From Bdellovibrionales bacterium (GTDB lineage: Bacteria; Bdellovibrionota; Bdellovibrionia; Bdellovibrionales; DASUEL01), in assembly GCA_050250255.1 (NCBI GenBank), contig JBFWOZ010000034.1, positions 1-30,820 of the forward strand: a DNA stretch of 30,820 nucleotides, given 5' to 3'. Below are positions 5,386 through 30,820 of this stretch, piece after piece. Position 1 is the first letter of the stretch, and every line of letters starts with the position of its first letter. The position numbers and the translations under genes are program-made. A model generated the notes under the pieces. The model was given only the letters and a program-made list of their open reading frames with translations, had not been told where the DNA came from and made no database searches.

Positions 5386-7404
5386 ATGAAATCAATGAAA
5401 ACTCTTATTCCTGTGGCAGTGGTGACCCTCGGATTGATCGCGGCTTGTGCCCCGCAATCACGATTTCGTGCCCCTGTTCTTAAAGACGGAAAGTTAAAAA
5501 CGGACGCGGCGGCCGAACAAATCGCACCAACCCCTGGCGGTTCCCCAAGTCTCGAGGCTCCAAAAGACAAATTTTCACTCGACTATGTGAATGAACTAGA
5601 AAACGTTTACGTGCACGTCGAACAGCAAAAAAACAAATCTTTATTGGTTCAAGCCCGAGTACAAAGAAAAAATGTCGGTGATGTTATTTTACAAGGCTCT
5701 ATTGCTGACGGGAAGAAAGAAGCTGAGCTTCAGCAATACATTTCCACTCCAGAAGGTCGCTTAGTGCTGGTCTCAGATGAGAGTGAATCCATCCGTGGGC
5801 AAGTAAAGTGTGAAGAAGGAAAGAGTTGTGAAGAGGCCCTTACAATTCTTGCTCAACCTTTCAAAAAAGGTGAAGAGATCGGCGAATTTAAGATTCAAGT
5901 TCTTAACTCCAAACTTTCAGTAGAAGGCGCGACATTCAAAAAAGGTAAAGATTTCGATGCCACTCTTGCCGAACAGCTTTCACAAGCGGATTCTGTTCGT
6001 CAAGGCACAGTTCAATGGAAGGGTGCTGATGCGAAAGTCACTCATATGATCACTCTTCTTCAAAAGGATGCGAGCAGTCTTTTGATTGCTGCCGCCTCAG
6101 GAAAAATCGACGAAAAAATTGAGAGCCTAAAATTTAAAACTATTAGTAGTAAAGCCACTTTGAAAAAAGATGGAGTGCTTCAAGTCACAGGTCTTTCTTT
6201 GCTGACAGCTAGCGATACAGATGGTCTTCTCAAGAGTACGACCATCACATTGCTCGATAAAGAATCCAATATATTAGAAATTCACTTAAAGTCAGAAAAT
6301 AAAACAGAAGAAAAAACTGAAGATACAGATACAGAAATAACGACTACAAGTGAAGCAGCCGTCGTCAAAGGAGCGCTTGACGAAGTATCTGGCAGTAATG
6401 ATCAACAGACTCCGCCTGATTCGGGAGTGACAACTCGAGTAGGAACTCTTGAAGAAAATAAAGCCAGCGTTCCGGGAGTGATTCCTGGTAAGCCCGAAGT
6501 TCCAACGGTGACGATCTCTACTACTCCGGTAGGAACCCTCGCAGAAAATAAAGCACAGGTGCCTGCAGCGACGGCACCAGTAACGATCGGCATTCCGAAC
6601 TCACAGCCAGCAGGAACTCCTGCGGGTGGAGCATTCGCGGCCGCAAAAGTGGGTGGATCTCCTTCGATGGCAACGACTCCTGTGGCACAGATCTCCGCAC
6701 CACCTGCACCAAAAGCTCCATCGGCGATGATTTCAAATCCCAAGGCTTCGCCAACACTCGGTAACACATTGGCGGCTTTCCCCGTACAGCCTGTTCAACC
6801 AACGGATGATTTAATCTCTAAGAGTGACTTGTTTTGTACTTACGATTTAAGAAACGATCCAACGTCTGAAATGCAAATTTACATCTGGACAGGAAAAGCG
6901 GTTTCTGGTGCGAAGGTAGAAAAAGTTATCCAGATGAAAGCAAAAAAGCTAGATCGCGCACGTAAAGAATTTGTTCGCATCGATGAAGGCAAAAAGGATT
7001 CAAACTATATTCAAGCGAACACCTGTTTGGGCCAATTGACCTTCGTTAAAGAGGGTACATCTTGTCGCGAGCCTTATTTTGAAGTTACTGCTCGCACAAG
7101 TATGGAAAACCAATGTGTGTTAGCGAAAAACTACGGCAGTCCAACAACGTCAGCTATCTACGTTTATTCGAAAGGTGATAAGGCTCAGATCACATTTAAC
7201 GGCGGCCAGGTTGTGCAAGGTAGTAGCATCGGACAGAACTACTCAAAGTTTGAACTTTGCTCGGGAGTTCATGTGCATCATGCAGATGGAGTCGCTCGTA
7301 AGTATGAGAATAAACCTCTTACGGTTTATGGTTACGTGAATCCACAAGGTTCGACTCTTCAAAACAAATGTGTGATTGGTCTTGATTACGCACGAGTGAA
7401 GTAA
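5386..7404 (+). CDS. Large hypothetical lipoprotein with Pro/Ala/Thr-rich linker and Cys-containing C-terminal repeats
   Basis: AAGGAGG RBS before ATG 5386; lipobox LIAAC; low-complexity linker; no family recognised. Confidence 0.8.
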   Translation: MKSMKTLIPVAVVTLGLIAACAPQSRFRAPVLKDGKLKTDAAAEQIAPTPGGSPSLEAPKDKFSLDYVNELENVYVHVEQQKNKSLLVQARVQRKNVGDVILQGSIADGKKEAELQQYISTPEGRLVLVSDESESIRGQVKCEEGKSCEEALTILAQPFKKGEEIGEFKIQVLNSKLSVEGATFKKGKDFDATLAEQLSQADSVRQGTVQWKGADAKVTHMITLLQKDASSLLIAAASGKIDEKIESLKFKTISSKATLKKDGVLQVTGLSLLTASDTDGLLKSTTITLLDKESNILEIHLKSENKTEEKTEDTDTEITTTSEAAVVKGALDEVSGSNDQQTPPDSGVTTRVGTLEENKASVPGVIPGKPEVPTVTISTTPVGTLAENKAQVPAATAPVTIGIPNSQPAGTPAGGAFAAAKVGGSPSMATTPVAQISAPPAPKAPSAMISNPKASPTLGNTLAAFPVQPVQPTDDLISKSDLFCTYDLRNDPTSEMQIYIWTGKAVSGAKVEKVIQMKAKKLDRARKEFVRIDEGKKDSNYIQANTCLGQLTFVKEGTSCREPYFEVTARTSMENQCVLAKNYGSPTTSAIYVYSKGDKAQITFNGGQVVQGSSIGQNYSKFELCSGVHVHHADGVARKYENKPLTVYGYVNPQGSTLQNKCVIGLDYARVK

Positions 7405-7489
7405 TAAAGGTGCCAGTGTCATTTTTCTGGCTACATTGCTTCACAAAAGTGGACGCAGCGTAGCCAGAAAAATGACACTGGCACCTTTA
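7405..7489. repeat. Palindromic element 2 (30-bp perfect arms); probably also a bidirectional terminator
   Basis: TAAAGGTGCCAGTGTCATTTTTCTGGCTAC (7405-7434) is the exact reverse complement of 7460-7489. It fills the whole gap between two convergent stop codons. Confidence 0.9.
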
Positions 7490-8212
7490 ATTCTTGAGAG
7501 CTACGTAGATACGATGGACATCATCGAACTCGTCCACATCACCTAAAAAATCTTCCACTTCTTTACGCTGTTCTGGCGTTACTTCCGTGGTGTTTTTAGC
7601 AATGTAGCTCATTTCGGAAGTCGTGATGATCCACCCGGCTTTAGATAAAAACTTATTTACGGTATCAAGGTCGGTTGGTTCGCAAAAAAACCGAGCTCCA
7701 ATTTGAGTGCCGATCATCTCCGCTTTTTCTAAAGGTTCCACGTTCTGTGCGCCAGCTTCAATCGCGACTTCTTCGATATCTAAAGATTTATTTTCATGGG
7801 TGGCTTCAATGACGCCGAGGTGATTGAACATCCATGTGACACTTCCGATAGCGCCCATTTGGCCTTTTCGAAAGAGAGCCTTGATTTCTGAAGATGTGCG
7901 GTTGCGATTATCCGTTAAGCATTCCACAATGACGGGAACTTTGTGGGGCGTGAAACCTTCAAAAGTGACCATCTCGTACTGGACGGCCTCGTCGAGTAAG
8001 CCCGCACCTTTTTTGATGGCGCGTTCAATTGTGTCTTTAGGGACAGATTGTTTGCGAGCCGCTTCGACAGCGGCTCTGAGTCTTGGGTTATTTTCAGGGT
8101 GCGGGTCGCCGAGCTTCGCCGCCACCATGATCTCTTTGGTGAGCTTGTGAGTTTTTGCACCTTTTGCAGCACTGGCGCCGGCTTTCCCGGCATGTTTCCA
8201 CTGGGCACCCAT
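7487..8212 (-). CDS. yebC: YebC/PmpR family protein
   Basis: MGAQWKH start, NPRLRAAVEAARKQSVPKDTIERAIKKG, VECLTDNRNRT, DDVHRIY. Start trimmed to ATG 8212 by family N-terminus. Confidence 0.93.
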   Translation of the reverse strand: MGAQWKHAGKAGASAAKGAKTHKLTKEIMVAAKLGDPHPENNPRLRAAVEAARKQSVPKDTIERAIKKGAGLLDEAVQYEMVTFEGFTPHKVPVIVECLTDNRNRTSSEIKALFRKGQMGAIGSVTWMFNHLGVIEATHENKSLDIEEVAIEAGAQNVEPLEKAEMIGTQIGARFFCEPTDLDTVNKFLSKAGWIITTSEMSYIAKNTTEVTPEQRKEVEDFLGDVDEFDDVHRIYVALKN

Positions 8213-8934: not shown

Positions 8935-9019
8935 GAAAAGGTGCCAGGTTCCGTTTCCGGGTCACACAGCGTCACACATGGACGCGGCGTGACCCGGAAA
9001 CGGAACCTGGCACCTTTTC
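8935..9019. repeat. Palindromic element 3 (31-bp perfect arms plus inner GCGTC/GACGC stem)
   Basis: GAAAAGGTGCCAGGTTCCGTTTCCGGGTCAC (8935-8965) is the exact reverse complement of 8989-9019. Confidence 0.9.
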
Positions 9020-24260: not shown

Positions 24261-26495
24261 ATGGCTTACATCGGAAAATCGGTTTTACGTAAAGAAGGTC
24301 AGGACAAAGTTCGAGGCGCGGCCAAGTACATTGATGACCTCACTTTTCCTGACATGCTTCATGGAGTAACGATTCGTAGTTCGATCGCCCGTGGAAAAAT
24401 CAAGAACATTCATTTTGATCCTTCGGTGAATTGGTCAGAATATACGATTGTTACCGCAAAAGACATTCCTGGCAAAAATCATGTAGCGCTGATTCAAAAT
24501 GATCAGCCTTACCTCGTGGATCAGATGATCAACCATCCTGAAGAAGCGGTGGTGCTTATCGCCCACCCCGATAAACATCAGGCGGAACTTGCGCGCACCA
24601 AAATAAAAATTGAAACCGAAGCGATGCCCGGGGTTTTTTCGATTCAAGACTCTTTAGATAAAAAACAAATCATCTGGGGCCAGGATAACGTCTTTAAAAA
24701 ATATCTTGTCGATAAAGGCAATGTGGACCCGGTATGGTCGCAAGCCCACATGGTTGTTGAAGACGAATACTCTACCGGTGCGCAAGAGCAACTTTACATT
24801 GAACCCAACGGCATGGTCGCCGTTGCGGATAAAGAAAATGGCGTAACGGTTTGGGGATCTCTCCAGTGTCCTTTCTATGTTCACAAAGCGCTGATTGATC
24901 TCTTTGCCTTGCCTCAAAATAAAATTCGTGTTGTGCAGGCGGCTACGGGCGGTGGATTTGGTGGGAAAGAAGAATATCCTTCCATGATTGCGGGACATAC
25001 CGCTCTTCTTGCATGGAAGTCTGGAAAGCCCGTGAAAATGATCTACGATCGTGCCGAGGATATGGTTTGTACAACGAAGCGACATCCTTCGCGCACGAAA
25101 CATCGCACCGCCGTTTCAAAAGAGGGAAAACTCCTCGCAATGGAAATAGATTTTGTGATCGATGGGGGAGCTTATATCACGCTATCTCCAGTGGTTCTTT
25201 CTCGAGGAACGATTCACGCGGCCGGCCCCTACGAATGTGATCATGTGAGAATCAAAAGCCAAGCGGTTGCGACGAACGCGCCTCCTCATGGAGCCTTTCG
25301 CGGTTTTGGAGCTCCGCAAAGTTTATTTGCCTTAGAAAAACATATGGATGTCGTAGCCAAAAAAGTGGGCCTCACTCCTGAGGAGTTTCGTCGTCGTAAT
25401 TTTTTAAAAACCAATTCTCGAACAGCCACGAAGCAACTGATTAAAGAAAAAATAGATCTACCAGCGCTGATGGATCTTGGCCTTCGTAACACAAAGTACT
25501 TTGAAAAAAGAAAAAAGTACGAAACGTCTAATAAAAATGGACCGATCAAACGCGGCATTGGATTTGCGACTTTCATGCATGGAGCAGGATTCACCGGGAG
25601 CGGTGAGAAGTATTTAGCTTCTCAAGTGGGCATTGAGGCGACAGAAGAAGGAAACATTCGAGTTCTCGCTGCGAGCACGGAAATTGGTCAAGGAACCAAT
25701 ACGGTATTCTCCCAAATCGTGGCCGATGCGCTGCAAATCTCTTACGAGTCAGTGGAGGTTTTGCAGCCCGATACATCCAAGGTACCTAACAGCGGTCCAA
25801 CCGTGGCTTCAAGAACTTGCATGATTGTAGGGAAGCTTGTGGAGTCTGCGGCTTTAGGACTCAAGCAAACCCTCACTCAAAGTGGGCTTTTAAAAACGAC
25901 TTACACAGATAAAGAATTTCGATTGGCTGTTTTAGAATACTTAAAAAAATTCGGAACCCTTAAGTGCGTTACCGAATATAAACAACCGAACGATGTTCAA
26001 TGGAACGATGAAAAATATGAAGGTGATGCTTATGCCGCTTTTGCGTGGGCCATTTATGTTGCTGACATAAGCGTCGACACCCGTACTTACGAGACGCGAG
26101 TGGAAGATTTCTACGCGCTTCAGGAAATTGGCCGCGTTGTGCATCCGCTCATGGCTGAAGGACAAATTGAAGGTGGGGTCGCTCAAGGAATTGGCTATGC
26201 GCTTTACGAAAAAGTGGTTTGGAAAGAAGGACGCATGATGAATGGTCAGATGACCAATTATATTATGCCCACCTCAGCGGATCTTGGATCTCTTCGTGTG
26301 GAATTTTTAGAAAATCCTACGGAGCATGGCCCAGGGGGCGCGAAAGGAATTGGAGAACTTCCAATGGACGGTCCAGGGCCAGCAATCCTCAACGCGATCG
26401 AGATGGCCGTAGGTAAAACACCTAAGTTTATTCCGTTTCTTCCAGAAGATATGAGACGTCTTTTGAAGAATGAGAAGATGGAAGGCCGCGCATGA
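24261..26495 (+). CDS. Xanthine dehydrogenase family molybdopterin-binding subunit
   Basis: GGGFGGKEE, AFRGFGAPQ, EIGQG, SGPTVASRT, GQIEGGVAQGIG, KGIGELP. Confidence 0.95.
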   Translation: MAYIGKSVLRKEGQDKVRGAAKYIDDLTFPDMLHGVTIRSSIARGKIKNIHFDPSVNWSEYTIVTAKDIPGKNHVALIQNDQPYLVDQMINHPEEAVVLIAHPDKHQAELARTKIKIETEAMPGVFSIQDSLDKKQIIWGQDNVFKKYLVDKGNVDPVWSQAHMVVEDEYSTGAQEQLYIEPNGMVAVADKENGVTVWGSLQCPFYVHKALIDLFALPQNKIRVVQAATGGGFGGKEEYPSMIAGHTALLAWKSGKPVKMIYDRAEDMVCTTKRHPSRTKHRTAVSKEGKLLAMEIDFVIDGGAYITLSPVVLSRGTIHAAGPYECDHVRIKSQAVATNAPPHGAFRGFGAPQSLFALEKHMDVVAKKVGLTPEEFRRRNFLKTNSRTATKQLIKEKIDLPALMDLGLRNTKYFEKRKKYETSNKNGPIKRGIGFATFMHGAGFTGSGEKYLASQVGIEATEEGNIRVLAASTEIGQGTNTVFSQIVADALQISYESVEVLQPDTSKVPNSGPTVASRTCMIVGKLVESAALGLKQTLTQSGLLKTTYTDKEFRLAVLEYLKKFGTLKCVTEYKQPNDVQWNDEKYEGDAYAAFAWAIYVADISVDTRTYETRVEDFYALQEIGRVVHPLMAEGQIEGGVAQGIGYALYEKVVWKEGRMMNGQMTNYIMPTSADLGSLRVEFLENPTEHGPGGAKGIGELPMDGPGPAILNAIEMAVGKTPKFIPFLPEDMRRLLKNEKMEGRA

Positions 26496-26977
26496 AAAAA
26501 GAAGATGTAAAAAAGGAGAAAGTCACCTTTCAAGTCAACGGCAAGATTCAAACAGTCGAAGCTTACCCTATGGAGCGCCTTCTTGATGTTTTAAGAACGG
26601 AAGTTCAGCTCACCGGAACCAAAGAAGGTTGTGGTGAAGGAGAATGTGGTGCATGTTCTATTTTCATGAATGGTCTACTCGTGAATAGTTGTCTTGTTCC
26701 CGTTCACCAAGCAAAAAATGTCCAGGTCACGACGATTGAAGGACTGAGTGAAGATAAAAATCTTCATGTGATGCAAAAAGCCTTCTTGGAATGTGGGGGA
26801 GCCCAATGCGGGATTTGCACTCCAGGAATGATCATGGCTTCTTGTCATCTGTTAGAAAAAAATAAAAATCCTAGTCGCCAAGAAATTGCCGAAGCTTTAT
26901 CTGGAAATCTCTGCCGCTGCACCGGATACACCAAAATTTTGGATTCTGTGGAGCAAGCCCTCAAGGAGCGCACATGA
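26492..26977 (+). CDS. XDH family (2Fe-2S)-binding subunit
   Basis: GTKEGCGEGECGAC, QCGICTPG, GNLCRCTGY. Confidence 0.96.
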   Translation: MKKEDVKKEKVTFQVNGKIQTVEAYPMERLLDVLRTEVQLTGTKEGCGEGECGACSIFMNGLLVNSCLVPVHQAKNVQVTTIEGLSEDKNLHVMQKAFLECGGAQCGICTPGMIMASCHLLEKNKNPSRQEIAEALSGNLCRCTGYTKILDSVEQALKERT

Positions 26978-27846
26978 GAGGTTTTGTTCCTAATTACTCC
27001 ATGGTTTCTCCAAAAAATCTGTCTGAGGCTCTCAGTCTCTTGGAGAAAAATCCTTCGCTGAAACCCTTTGCGGGTGGAACCGATATTATGGTTCTCTTTG
27101 AAGCAGGAAAATTAGAAGCAAAAGAATTTCTCGATATCAATCAGCTCTCCGAATTAAAAAAGATTAAGGTAGAGCCTCAACATATTGAAATTGGGGCCTT
27201 GGCAACCTACACCGACATTGCACAAAATCCTGAGATTCAAAAAGAGTTTCCTATGCTTGTGCAAGCGGCCACTCTTACGGGCGCCGTGGCGATTCAAAAT
27301 CGCGGAACTATCGGCGGGAATATCGCAAACTCTTCTCCCGCTGCGGATACACCACCCGCTTTACTCGCCTACGATGCGGCATTGATTCTCACATCTTCAA
27401 AAGGGGAGAGACAGATTTCTATTTCGCAATTTTTTAAGGCCTACAAAAAGACGGCTTTAGAAAAGGGTGATTTGATCACGAAAGTGATTTTAAAAAGAAA
27501 CTTTCAGCCAACTGATGTTCACTATTATCACAAAGTGGGAACGCGGAAAGCGCAGGCGATTTCGAAAGTGTGTTTTGCGGCTTTTGCAAATATGGAAAAT
27601 CAAAAAATATTGAATGTACGTATCGGCCTTGGGAGTGTAGGACCGACTTCTCAAAGGGCTCTCCAGACGGAAGCTCTTTTAAAGGGGCAAGTGGTCAACG
27701 ATTCGCTGATTCAAAAGGCCAGAGCCTCTCTTGCCCAAGAAATTGTTCCTATAGACGATATACGCTCAGATTCTGCTTACAGACTTGACGTAGCCTGCAA
27801 TCTTTTAGAAGACTTCCTGCATGGATTGGCTCGCCGGCCTTCATGA
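26974..27846 (+). CDS. XDH family FAD-binding subunit
   Basis: AGGTD, IQNRGTIGGNIANSSPAAD, PIDDIRS..YR. Confidence 0.95.
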   Translation: MRGFVPNYSMVSPKNLSEALSLLEKNPSLKPFAGGTDIMVLFEAGKLEAKEFLDINQLSELKKIKVEPQHIEIGALATYTDIAQNPEIQKEFPMLVQAATLTGAVAIQNRGTIGGNIANSSPAADTPPALLAYDAALILTSSKGERQISISQFFKAYKKTALEKGDLITKVILKRNFQPTDVHYYHKVGTRKAQAISKVCFAAFANMENQKILNVRIGLGSVGPTSQRALQTEALLKGQVVNDSLIQKARASLAQEIVPIDDIRSDSAYRLDVACNLLEDFLHGLARRPS

Positions 27847-28639
27847 GGCCCGACAAAATAATCATAGCTGCGTTCTTGTCACTTTGATGGGAATTTCAGG
27901 TTCTGCCCCCCGCGAAAAGGGAGCGAAGATGCTTGTTTTGTCGGATGGTCGTATTCGCGGAACTATTGGGGGCGGGCAGCTTGAGCTCCAGATCATTGAT
28001 GAAGCCAAAAAATATCTCTCTCAAGGCAAATCCGAAACTCTTTATACCCAAGATTATCCGCTCAGCGTGAAAACGCAGCAATGTTGTGGAGGAGTCGTGC
28101 AAGCGCTTTTTGAAGTGTTTCACTCCCAAAAGTCTCTCTATATTTTTGGTGCAGGGCATGTGGGCCAGGCATTGAGTCGAGTTGTTTCGGAATTGCCGTT
28201 AGATGTGCATCTGATTGACGAAAGGCAGGAGTGGGTCTCCCAAGCTTCTTCATCCGTAAAAACCTATCAGCAAAAGCCCCTTGAATTTGTAACCCATCGG
28301 GAATGGAAAAATTCCGATTTCGTGGTGGTATTAACACATTCTCATGATTTAGATTTTGAGCTCATTCATTATTTCTGCGGCAAAAACATTCAGTATTTAG
28401 GTTTAATCGGTAGCGATACAAAATGGGCTCAGATGAGAAAAAAACTTCAGAGTCAGAAACACTCGCTAGAGAACATCGAAAAAATTCGTTGTCCGATCGG
28501 TCTTAAAATTGGTGGTAAAACCCCTGGTGAAGTAGCCATCAGCATTGCGGCTGAACTTCTACAAGAAACAGGAAAGGCAGCTCTTTATGAGAACACTCCT
28601 ACAGAACCAAACTCCACTCATTCTCCTGTGCGCTGGTAA
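27821..28639 (+). CDS. xdhC: Xanthine dehydrogenase accessory protein XdhC
   Basis: GSAPREKGAKMLV, GTIGGGQLE, QCCGG, FGAGHVG, THSHDLD, GLIGS, CPIG, KTPGEVAISIAAE. Confidence 0.93.
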   Translation: MDWLAGLHEARQNNHSCVLVTLMGISGSAPREKGAKMLVLSDGRIRGTIGGGQLELQIIDEAKKYLSQGKSETLYTQDYPLSVKTQQCCGGVVQALFEVFHSQKSLYIFGAGHVGQALSRVVSELPLDVHLIDERQEWVSQASSSVKTYQQKPLEFVTHREWKNSDFVVVLTHSHDLDFELIHYFCGKNIQYLGLIGSDTKWAQMRKKLQSQKHSLENIEKIRCPIGLKIGGKTPGEVAISIAAELLQETGKAALYENTPTEPNSTHSPVRW

Positions 28640-29222
28640 AAGCGAGCGTTTTGGTTCTCCTAAAGGCTTAGCACCTTTTGGCTCAGGAACTTGGCTCAAA
28701 CATCAGATCGAAAGCTTTCGGGAGTTTTCCGAAGCCTCAATATTTGTAACTTTAGGGGCCTATCATCGAGAGTACGACACCGAAATTCAAAACCTTCTTG
28801 AGACAAATAAAAGTTTGAAAATCTTTGGCGTAGAAAACCCGCATCATGAGTGGGGACCTTTTTCGAGCGTGTATGTGGCGGTTAGAGCCGTTCTCAACAA
28901 GAAGTATAAGCAGGGGTTCATCCTTCCCGTAGATGTGGCGCTGCCAAATTCGGAAGTTCTCTCCGTTCTTTTAGAAACTGACGAGAATAAAGATATCATC
29001 GTGCCTGCATATAAAGAAAAGGGCGGACACCCGGTGCTCCTGCGGCATAAGTTTCTGCAAAGAATTAGCGAAGCAGATCCAAAGACTGATCGCTTAGATC
29101 ACTTAATCCGTCAGTGGCCGAGCGAAGGTTATGAGAAAAAAGAGGTCTCGGATATTTTCGTGACGAGTGGTTTTAATACGATTGCGGAATATGAAGCTTT
29201 GAAGGACTTAATCAAAGCATAA
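28587..29222 (+). CDS. Molybdenum cofactor cytidylyltransferase-like nucleotidyltransferase (MocA family)
   Basis: LLCAGKSERFGSPKGL, LPVD, GGHPVLL; last gene of the XDH operon; start probably ATG 28587. Confidence 0.85.
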   Translation: MRTLLQNQTPLILLCAGKSERFGSPKGLAPFGSGTWLKHQIESFREFSEASIFVTLGAYHREYDTEIQNLLETNKSLKIFGVENPHHEWGPFSSVYVAVRAVLNKKYKQGFILPVDVALPNSEVLSVLLETDENKDIIVPAYKEKGGHPVLLRHKFLQRISEADPKTDRLDHLIRQWPSEGYEKKEVSDIFVTSGFNTIAEYEALKDLIKA

Positions 29223-29263
29223 AAATCAACATTCGATAGGATGCTAGCTTTGGAGTCATCCAT

Positions 29264-29383
29264 CCATGTCTGTGACTTTTGAAAGTTGGCTCTGCCGTAT
29301 CCCCTACGTTGGGGGACCCTCGGCAGTGAGCCAATCCCTTCGGGACAGGCTTTCAAAAGTTCTATGGCAAAATCGGTGCTTAA
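29264..29383 (+). repeat. Left copy of a ~120-bp structured inverted repeat flanking the HNH gene
   Basis: Aligns with the reverse complement of 30593-30713. 29283-29339 is identical to revcomp(30639-30695) over 57 bp. Confidence 0.93.
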
Positions 29384-29448
29384 ATTGTTAAATAAAAAAA
29401 TAAGTAGTCATTTTCTGCTAGTTTATAAACATCAAACACAGATTTAAG

Positions 29449-30312
29449 CTACAGAAGTGTTTGACTTTTTAAGTCCCACATTAATTTGTTATGGTTTGAA
29501 CAAAGAAGTCTGAGATTTCTTAACTCTGTCTTTCCCCCGAACGCTAACGGTTTGATATGATCAAATTGAAGATAGTGCTTACTTCCACAAACGCGCCCTG
29601 TCTGAGGGTTTTTATACTGGCAGACTTGATCACGATGAATAATCGTCGCTTTAATAGCTTTAGGAATATAACGAGCCGATGAAACCTTGAGAAGAGGTTC
29701 ACTCCGCTGCGGAGGCAGTGGCGCGTTATGCTTTTGCATGAGTACATTGAGTCCCATTTCAAAAATCTGCGCCATCGAAAGGTTTTGATGAGACAGCTTA
29801 GCTTGAAGTGTTTTTAACTTCTCTTGGCCTGACCTATTTAATGTAAATCGAACTTCCGTATGTTCTTCATCCAGCAGTCGCTGCTTTTCTTCGGGAATAG
29901 GCAAAGGAGCAAGAGCTAAAAGAACTCGCTCTGATTCTTGAGAACTTTTATTTTCTAATTGAGACAAAATCTCTCTTTTTGAATGCGTATCGAGTCTTTG
30001 CTGACGAAAATGAGATTGTGCTTTGCTAATGACGGAAAGATTCAAAACTCCGGATTGGATTTTCTCCTCCACTTCAGGAATTTCTTTAATGAGCCTCATA
30101 GCCGAAATCCTTCGATGTGCACTCGCTTCGGAATATCCAAGCTCTTTCGTACAAAAGGCATAAAGATTGGAGTAACCCATCTGCAAATGAAGCTTACGAC
30201 CTTCCACTTCTCGTAAATGGTGAAGCACAAGATTTAATATCCTTCTTTCCTCTAAAACAAATTGTTTTAAATCCTGAACGAGAATTTCGTTAGTTTTCAA
30301 TTTTAGTTTCAT
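29449..30312 (-). CDS. DUF222-like N-terminal domain / HNH endonuclease protein
   Basis: N-terminal EERR..LHHLREVE.RKLHL.MGYSNLYAFCTKELGYSEASAHRRI. C-terminal RYIP...RDQVCQY...CGS...QFDHIKP..FGG.....NLRLLCSNHN. AAGGAG RBS. Confidence 0.9.
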   Translation of the reverse strand: MKLKLKTNEILVQDLKQFVLEERRILNLVLHHLREVEGRKLHLQMGYSNLYAFCTKELGYSEASAHRRISAMRLIKEIPEVEEKIQSGVLNLSVISKAQSHFRQQRLDTHSKREILSQLENKSSQESERVLLALAPLPIPEEKQRLLDEEHTEVRFTLNRSGQEKLKTLQAKLSHQNLSMAQIFEMGLNVLMQKHNAPLPPQRSEPLLKVSSARYIPKAIKATIIHRDQVCQYKNPQTGRVCGSKHYLQFDHIKPLAFGGKTELRNLRLLCSNHNKLMWDLKSQTLL

Positions 30313-30592
30313 AAATCACTCCTTTGGCTGAATCAAAGATAACATGAGATTTTTTTGAATGAATTTTTAGAGTCTAACGAATGAAAACTAATCTCGCCTT
30401 AATGAAATTTAAAGCCCATTAGGCGAACGAAAAATTACATTTTGATTTTTTCAGAATTGAAACTCTACTACACTGATCAAACGAAAACTTAAGAGCAAGA
30501 AAAGTCGGTCAAGATCTTATTTGCGCCTTTTCAAATTATTTAAAAAAGTGAGACAAAAAATATTCTGCTTTACGCATAGAAGTTTGCAATAC

Positions 30593-30713
30593 TTAAAGTA
30601 CCGATCTCGCCATAGAACTTTTGAAAGCTCGTCCCGATAGGGATTGGCTCACTGCCGAGGGTCCCCCAACGTAGGGGATACGGCAGAGCCAACTTCAAAA
30701 GTCACAGACACGG
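30593..30713 (-). repeat. Right copy of the ~120-bp structured inverted repeat
   Basis: Reverse complement of 29264-29383 with a few substitutions and indels outside the 57-bp core. Confidence 0.93.
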
Positions 30714-30727
30714 TAAATTGAAGAAGT

Positions 30728-30792
30728 AGGGTCTCCAACGGTTGAATAATCTCGGATTAGGAGATTATTAATTGGACTCTGAAGGAGACCCT
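30728..30792 (+). promoter_or_regulatory. Structured leader pairing with the RBS of the downstream ORF
   Basis: AGGGTCTCC (30728-36) pairs with GGAGACCCT (30784-92). Inner stem AATAATCTC (30745-53)/GAGATTATT (30761-69). Confidence 0.55.
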
Positions 30793-30796
30793 TAAA

Positions 30797-30820
30797 ATGA
30801 AATACAAACATTATATCGCC
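30797..30820 (+). CDS. Start of a CDS truncated by the window end (MKYKHYIA...)
   Basis: ATG 30797 preceded by AAGGAG; only 8 codons visible. Confidence 0.55.

Follow-up and report, generated by a model that had tools for sequence, protein, structure and literature searches.

A DUF222-like HNH gene between inverted Y-folding repeats in a Bdellovibrionales genome, with a candidate recognition palindrome in its linker

The locus and the closest described systems

The closest described relatives of the gene analysed here are the DUF222-HNH genes (PF02720 plus PF01844) of the REP13E12 repeats of Mycobacterium tuberculosis, which are dispersed and multi-copy and, like this gene, code for a protein whose N-terminal part is helical and whose C terminus carries an HNH domain; the accessible text of PMC13061034 gives these repeats no defined function and describes a putative prophage attachment site in the repeat. 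DUF222-HNH genes can number tens of divergent copies in one genome, and they do so without a transposase. We consider a gene for a 287-aa HNH protein that lies between two inverted copies of a repeat near the right-hand end of a 30,820-nt stretch (the window), which is the whole of contig C34 of a 3.09-Mb, 95-contig Bdellovibrionales genome (G000); C-numbers are contigs of that genome, G-numbers genomes, L-numbers loci taken from other genomes, and X1 and X3 sequencing runs. The analyses presented here demonstrate that the two repeats (arms) belong to a dispersed GGATG-type family, that the right flank is the end of an insertion sequence (IS), and that linker sequence of the HNH gene is duplicated upstream in many members of the gene family. 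With about even confidence we read the locus as an HNH cassette flanked by two Y-folding repeats, of which the IS interrupts the right one; the cassette likely spreads by palindrome binding and a nick-and-copy process and carries the repeats as passengers.

The arms (29264–29384 and 30593–30713) are identical at 113 of 122 positions (E 8e-48), differ at nine and have a longest exact core of 57 bp (29283–29339 and 30639–30695), and the single open reading frame (ORF) between them, on the minus strand at 29449–30312, codes for the HNH protein, whose Pfam HNH match lies over the cut-off; on these points an earlier note, drawn from the letters of this DNA, was borne out. Its description of AT-rich DNA following the XDH operon holds in a mild form (39% GC for the region against 44% for the window, with 22% and 30% in the two spacers), and its statement that no DDE, HUH or recombinase gene is present stands for the segment between the arms but not for the ORF at 30797, very probably the start of a DEDD/IS110 transposase. 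When folded by itself, each arm forms a three-way junction (z −4.0 to −5.2, equalled by none of 200 shuffles); the repeat is thus an independent structured element, two copies of which stand here in opposite orientation.

The same note had called the protein DUF222-like, a name that fits the family, 32 of 106 aligned members matching PF02720 at E≤0.01 (best 3.5e-8), but not the window protein itself, which has no match at E≤0.1. The protein further differs from the DUF222-HNH/REP13E12 group in its short length and in belonging to a Bdellovibrionota clade, as does the locus in its Y-repeat arms and linker palindrome, for neither of which a description was found in the literature searched, supplements with possible repeat catalogues lying outside that search; the accessible parts of PMC10589994 and PMC6006769 describe neither, and ‘GGATG’ is absent from the main text of the latter. 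The gene behaves like a repeat gene of the DUF222-HNH/REP13E12 type, but as its protein has no PF02720 match we class it as a related clade, not as a member of that group. The likeness to ParB and KorB lies in the predicted helix-turn-helix (HTH) fold and in the 6-1-6 geometry of the site, the KorB operator oligonucleotide being a 6-1-6 palindrome in the accessible text of PMC11790492; unlike those proteins, ours matches in the DNA-binding domain only, shows no evident CTPase domain, is fused to ribbon-helix-helix (RHH) and HNH parts and has the site inside its own gene. Moreover, the locus is neither a classical IS with terminal inverted repeats nor an OMEGA system. In contrast to the former, no transposase gene lies between the arms, where the HNH ORF stands alone, and inverted pairs of 40 nt or more are missing from the 81 homologous loci of other genomes; with the OMEGA/HEARO systems (IscB plus RNA) it shares an HNH domain adjoining a structured non-coding element, whereas it has no RuvC region and no Rfam match, and the element is not conserved with the protein.

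The HNH protein and its linker palindrome

The linker codons of the HNH gene contain the palindrome CTCCGC-W-GCGGAG, which is identical in the paralogues on C14 and C92, and other clades have different palindromes at the same place; on C10, C18 and in one C8 copy, the palindrome found there has a second copy 330–350 nt upstream of the matched region. We scored the best 18-mer match between each linker and the 700 nt upstream, counting at least 17 of 18 as a hit, for 88 loci with a usable HNH motif (six without the motif, and earlier the loci lacking the domain, were dropped), of which four had less than 450 nt of upstream DNA. A linker copy with 17 or 18 matches was found upstream in 21 of the 84 loci tested, from 10 genomes, against 1/84 downstream, 0/84 for N-terminal sequence and 1/168 for cross-genome swaps; the matched words are palindromic in the majority of cases, though not in every one. 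With at most one mismatch the palindrome of the window’s clade occurs 10 times in the genome and four times in a reversed-genome control, the 10 comprising three in clade linkers, five beside Y arms or arm tails, one solo copy with gene-like flanks (C14:33284) and one on C29. The 13-bp palindrome, which the earlier note had not remarked on, is a more general cis signal than the long inverted repeat and the better candidate for the recognition site of the protein.

An AlphaFold2 model from 106 sequences (pLDDT 93.5) starts with a long helix. In VIA comparisons residues 18–138 resemble the DNA-binding domains of ParB and KorB (Z 7.0 for ParB-parS, 6s6h; 6.4–6.9 for KorB, with a root-mean-square deviation of 3.3 over about 100 residues, and Z below the tool’s guide of 8), and the DNA-binding domains of Spo0J and SopB likewise resemble the predicted HTH; residues 150–200 resemble RHH proteins (Z about 5), and residues 209–287 HNH nucleases (Z 6.1–6.9). 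Foldseek gave no match at E≤0.001, an HNH nickase and P1 ParB being its best rows (E about 0.1), and a CTPase domain was found neither in Pfam nor among the structural matches listed. H252, N266, N275, C231, C242 and C271, the catalytic and zinc residues, are conserved in at least 90% of the 106 sequences. We therefore describe the protein as predicted to combine a ParB/KorB-like HTH, an RHH, a linker and an HNH domain with zinc ligands. The paralogues on C34 and C14 have the same palindrome and nearly identical HTH helices with different RHH strands, a comparison of two sequences that points to the HTH as the likely reader of the palindrome. A general helix-to-palindrome recognition code was considered and rejected, the correspondence being suggestive within one clade only.

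In its own genome the protein gave 20 tblastn matches including the query (22 by a second search), mostly with open frames and with 24–86% identity besides the query; across genomes the spread is patchy, 26 of 41 having matches and single genomes having as many as 47. PADLOC assigned no family. Related stand-alone HNH enzymes nick DNA, according to the accessible text of PMC3592412.

Considering a potential mechanism, we suggest that a dimer, predicted from the likeness to RHH proteins, would bind the palindromes upstream of and inside the gene and, through these upstream and internal sites, would repress its own gene; when active, the protein would nick near a palindrome, and host recombination would copy the cassette or its ends to new places, copying between the ends having perhaps made and homogenized the inverted arms. 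Such a nick-and-copy process would explain the many divergent intact copies, the solo palindromes, the exchange of Y repeats between clades and the mirror-image arms of one clade. Extended to the DUF222-like HNH genes of Bdellovibrionota as a whole, the proposal would make them a transposase-free mobile class in which a ParB-like reader acts on a clade palindrome upstream of and inside the gene, the HNH domain nicks beside it and the cassette is copied to new sites; in the window’s clade the process would have built long composite inverted arms of palindrome and Y repeat and would ferry the Y family, on which an IS110-family element in turn is a parasite; this wider claim is tentative, and we hold it doubtful at present. 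The locus supplies a candidate site of 13 bp and a model with three domains, and its natural variants differ in their palindromes; if the proposal is true, a compact, site-specific family of reader-nickases would be useful as a tool.

Several observations weigh against the cassette reading. All VIA Z-scores are moderate, lying below 8, and Foldseek is blank at its threshold; most paralogues are very divergent, unlike those of a recently active element. In the linker test 63 of the 84 loci fail, the loci are clustered in few genomes and are not independent, and C34 is itself negative, with 13 of 18 at best in the 508 nt upstream before the contig end; perfect 7-pair palindromes are only modestly enriched in linkers (24/88 against 10/88 in controls), and in some genomes the same palindrome goes with different helices. 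Neither an empty site nor an IS-free allele was seen in the unitigs of three runs, at C63 or at the mocA-like loci, and the link of the right arm of C34 across the IS to a palindrome-bearing flank is unproven.

The Y-folding repeat family and the inverted arms

A covariance model (R1) built from six short repeat copies gave 15 matches in the genome at E≤1, all 15 of them, the six training copies included, at HNH genes, and a wider model (R2) added a copy on C5 and one weak match off HNH genes (C28, E 0.012), which brings the copies at HNH genes to 16. The earlier note had named a repeat scattered through the genome without enrichment at HNH genes as grounds for giving up its idea, and the repeat is instead concentrated there. 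In 14 of the 20 paralogues it has the sense orientation and lies no more than 90 nt from the stop codon, which it overlaps in six; six paralogues have no Y repeat. Two inverted upstream copies were found, the right arm of C34 and a partial copy on C26; matching 3-bp flanks and leader sequence suggest that C26 carries the upstream part of the C14 paralogue, which an IS3-like element would have divided. The stem pairing covaries, with compensatory changes in two alignments (the second fitted to the model), and in the model-fitted alignment the pairs are nearly all Watson–Crick (three G-U and one U-G cell of 290). With inner hairpins removed where present, the C82 repeat is 94% like that of C92, the two proteins being about 25–31% alike; the repeat thus departs from the gene tree, and the alignments show it as passing between unrelated HNH clades. 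In this genome the Y lineage is limited to HNH genes of three clades. The inner hairpin is a separate module, found also in repeats far from HNH genes.

Strictly filtered scans of other genomes found the Y repeat in 4 of 140 by R1 and 8 of 149 by R2, and 20 of the 22 loci are not at HNH genes. The two that are lie 37 nt past a stop codon (L161) and, inverted, about 600 nt before a start codon (L167), the latter being the layout of the right arm in another family. Five loci of G021 (L172, L163, L169, L175 and L177) share upstream sequence, with an IS1-like gene in L172; one (L165, G219) follows an IS481-like gene, and in both groups the Y repeat forms part of the 3′ end of the gene, both assignments scoring under the NCBIfam cut-offs. 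A further locus has an integrase-like gene nearby, two others carry the flank of L167, and the remainder are at host genes, some of which we take to be dnaK- and ndk-like. From these copies at transposase and host genes it follows that the Y repeat is a general passenger favouring mobile genes, and not a dedicated HNH partner.

These positions bear on a different reading, in which the HNH protein is a resident, self-repressed stress nuclease, the palindromes are operators (looping, as with lac O1/O2), the Y repeats were put in after stop codons or in AT-rich leaders by another mobilizer, and the inverted pair reflects two insertions plus gene conversion. In 9 of the 22 loci elsewhere a stop codon in the sense direction precedes the Y repeat by 8–129 nt, several of the genes being housekeeping ones, and four more loci share the IS1-like upstream sequence; the repeat is absent at the six paralogues mentioned above, and gene conversion among REP13E12 loci is documented in the accessible text of PMC13061034. 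A regulated promoter would also fit the positional TTGAC: 46 of 71 loci have this word between −250 and −176, and in 16 pairs a −10-like motif comes 165–189 nt later (neither count having a shuffle control), the promoter-like halves upstream of the HNH genes being some 165–186 nt apart; a promoter scan gave one site against 3.2 expected. However, this account leaves unexplained the up to 47 matches per genome with their patchy spread and the limitation of the Y lineage here to HNH genes of three clades, and a RAYT as the mobilizer was rejected, since none of eight Y1/RAYT-like genes is flanked by GGATG repeats in an assembly that is 99% marker-complete and drops repeats. We consider it a lesser possibility, on the unlikely side.

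REP/REPIN sequences, which have a tetranucleotide foot of the GTAG/CGTC type, resemble the Y repeat in being extragenic, dispersed and palindromic with conserved pairing, in having nested modules and in being targets of IS110-family elements; the Y repeat differs in its three-way fold, GGATG tail and low copy number and in flanking none of the eight Y1 matches here. A second GGATG family, with two hairpins, occurs off HNH genes (C1:110583, C9:74865, C11:76304, C12:2049, C16:43787, C33:15714, C33:15980 and C29:21330), two copies of which carry the inner hairpin of the arms. There is also a second multi-copy Y1/HUH-like family without flanking hairpins (C48:685, C21:1439, C14:17269 and C26:10159), some members having a common leader and three being close copies.

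The earlier note had further proposed that the repeat might supply an RNA for the HNH protein. On that view a transcript of the Y repeat, made at the 3′ end of the gene, would serve as an OMEGA/HEARO-like guide or scaffold RNA, as its strong fold (z −4 to −5.2), its compensatory changes and its sense orientation just past the stop in the 14 paralogues might suggest. Rfam gave no match near the gathering score for the region or for eight repeat loci, and no variable guide is evident; the near-pure Watson–Crick pairing is that of a DNA palindrome, most homologous loci have no Y repeat, the same fold lies behind IS1-like, IS481-like and housekeeping genes, and the IscB model (NF040563) matches the HNH stretch only, with 18 bits against a cut-off of 175. 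RNA guidance is unlikely, and we rate such a system very low among the explanations considered. Downstream of the Y repeat several 3′ regions of clade B (C39:22600–22700, C30, C1 and C29) carry a further long imperfect hairpin, with weak miRNA-like Rfam scores far under the cut-off.

As regards the pairing of the arms, 83 top-scoring loci were taken from other genomes, 58 of them from eight many-copy genomes and thus not independent, and 81 had enough flank. None of the 81 has an inverted pair of at least 40 nt, three having short pairs of 19–33 nt, and within the window’s own genome the Y repeat occupies both the inverted-upstream and the 3′ position in 2 of 20 paralogues, the other clades having it 3′ only. 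As a family trait, an element bounded by long inverted repeats did not survive this comparison. A unit bounded by long inverted repeats of about 230 bp (palindrome, spacer and Y), both arms of which the HNH protein would cut in order to excise, invert or copy it, would be in line with the inverted-upstream plus direct-downstream Y repeats at C34 and C14/C26, with L167, with the order Y then palindrome at the 3′ end of C92 and with the palindrome-bearing arm tails on C63, C58 and C48. Against it stand the counts just given and the left arm of C34, which has no palindrome; no target duplication was seen, the true right boundary lying beyond the unassembled IS, and opposite-strand unitig joints, considered as signs of inversion, were dismissed on account of their C92 paralogue letters and loose ends. 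We regard such a unit as rather improbable. As a feature, the long inverted repeat is composite and local.

That the inverted layout is a mis-assembly through the repeated core is, in our judgement, highly improbable. The contig does end in a collapsed repeat, and no listed unitig crosses the full stretch, which leaves the orientation of the enclosed segment unproven; X1 unitigs, however, connect the mocA-like gene with the left arm (28600–29312), a 410-bp X1 unitig at single-copy depth links the HNH start with the middle of the right arm (30259–30668), and a 158-bp X3 unitig covers 30531–30688. Additionally, the arms differ at their nine positions, and the layout recurs at the second paralogue (C26/C14) and at L167. 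The empty site that the earlier note had envisaged, the mocA-like gene beside the MKYKHYIA gene, proved ill-posed, MKYKHYIA belonging to the IS. No same-strand joint skipping the cassette occurs in three runs of one study, contigs being able to show the presence of the cassette and not its absence, and the mocA-like genes that the window gene as query detected in 4 of 40 other genomes show no member of the HNH family within about 1.5 kb, but they are not syntenic either.

The IS110-family insertion and the features of the window

The outer ends TGT...ACA given in the earlier note are not the ends of an element: on the left the repeat runs on beyond the TGT to about 29242, and on the right the similarity stops where the left end of an IS110-family element begins, at about 30711. 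The final 108 bases of C34 are identical to the start of C82 and likewise preceded there by a Y repeat, and the ends of five other contigs share a sequence that includes a 9-bp inverted copy of 30719–30727. This sub-terminal repeat is set in by 7–8 nt at the left end and by 3 nt at the right; after each of the five right ends comes the GGATG tail of the Y repeat, and both left ends are preceded by a Y repeat. In X1 a 1394-bp unitig at depth 42 (single-copy about 10) ends in the common right-end sequence, and the depth over 30775–30820 is likewise 42. Two alleles as the source of the end shared by C34 and C82 were ruled out by this roughly fourfold depth and by the five right ends. The right ‘end’ of the inverted repeat is, in our assignment from these junctions, the insertion scar of a multi-copy IS110-family element that targets the repeat tail.

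A search for the junction pattern in 384 genomes gave 12 with a match, several by chance (ordinary genes), and one complete relative. This copy (L097, G071:C123, element at 121–1512) lies within a GGATG repeat tail, agrees with the window’s left end in 74% of columns and contains, from the MKYKHYIA position, a 331-aa ORF with PF01548 and PF02371, followed by a downstream non-coding region; its score against NF033542 is 118.6, the cut-off being 140. The MKYKHYIA ORF is most likely the start of an IS110-family transposase. No PF01548 protein was found in the window’s own genome because the IS is collapsed or unassembled there, only eight transposase codons being present, and the exact left-end pattern gave no match in metagenome contigs. 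In the accessible text of PMC11187229 the IS1111 group is marked by sub-terminal repeats, by a non-coding region downstream and by insertion that adds no bases, and the IS of the window resembles the elements of the IS110/IS1111 family, that of the seekRNA/bridge-RNA transposases, in its inset sub-terminal repeat, specific target and length of about 1.39 kb; it differs in targeting the Y-repeat tail and in that its own transposase is missing from the assembly. The right end of L097 recurs in two or more further genomes of the order.

Three of the five right flanks of the IS (C63, C58 and C48) continue with the outer sequence of the left arm (88–92% over 24–26 nt) and then carry the clade palindrome. 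The right arm probably went on past the IS for some 85–90 nt to such a palindrome, and a full arm of this clade would thus consist of palindrome, about 85 nt and Y repeat, with a continuation into C63, C58 or C48; at C63 no IS-free allele was seen. The Y repeat together with its tail-targeting IS110-family element is a second, smaller lead: REPs are targets of ISPa11, ISPpu9 and ISPpu10 according to the accessible text of PMC1525189, and the structured target is like that of ISPpu10 as described in the accessible part of 10.64898/2026.03.19.712850. Another IS, recognized by shared contig ends, lies twice inside a palindrome of an HNH clade, upstream of the C27 gene (C27:1–170) and in the C17 linker (C17:54760–54918), and palindromes of these clades may be insertion hot spots.

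Table 1. Features at the right-hand end of the window
Feature	Position	Strand	Remarks
mocA/MobA-like NTP transferase, last gene of XDH operon	28587..29222	+	Host context; convergent with HNH gene; longest ORF from 28545
Left-arm tail: terminal CA-T-GGATG motif (intact IS110 target) and ~20 bases common to other arms	29242..29270	-	
Left Y-folding repeat (three-way junction)	29271..29363	-	85 nt past HNH stop, in the gene’s sense; z -5.2
Nested inner hairpin module	29290..29328	.	Most of the 57-bp core; also in non-HNH repeats (C11, C29)
Left-arm inner shoulder	29364..29384	-	Common to right arm and to arms at C92, C26
287-aa DUF222-like HNH gene	29449..30312	-	ORF, Pfam, alignment, structure model
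6-1-6 palindrome CTCCGC-W-GCGGAG in linker codons (LPPQRSE)	29702..29714	.	Candidate protein-binding site
Extended -10-like motif	30340..30346	-	~35 nt before start; half of a ‘split’ promoter-like layout
-35-like TTGACC	30507..30512	-	~200 nt before start
Right arm: shoulder and Y-folding repeat (core 30614-30706)	30593..30710	+	Inverted, upstream of gene; tail cut by IS
Left end of multi-copy IS110-family (IS1111-like) element	30711..30820	+	Sub-terminal repeat 30719-30727; boundary ±1-2 nt
Presumed IS transposase start (MKYKHYIA)	30797	+	Contig ends at 30820

The left arm is preceded by xdhC and then the mocA-like gene (Pfam), which close an intact operon of the XDH-type molybdoenzyme kind (24261–29222) with presumed large, Fe-S and FAD subunits. 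Elsewhere in the window, long intergenic hairpins at 168–222, 7399–7495 and 8935–9019 have terminal words that match the flanks of RAYT-like Y1 genes (C8:18852 and C1:52438), and these three are ordinary REPIN-like repeats of other families.

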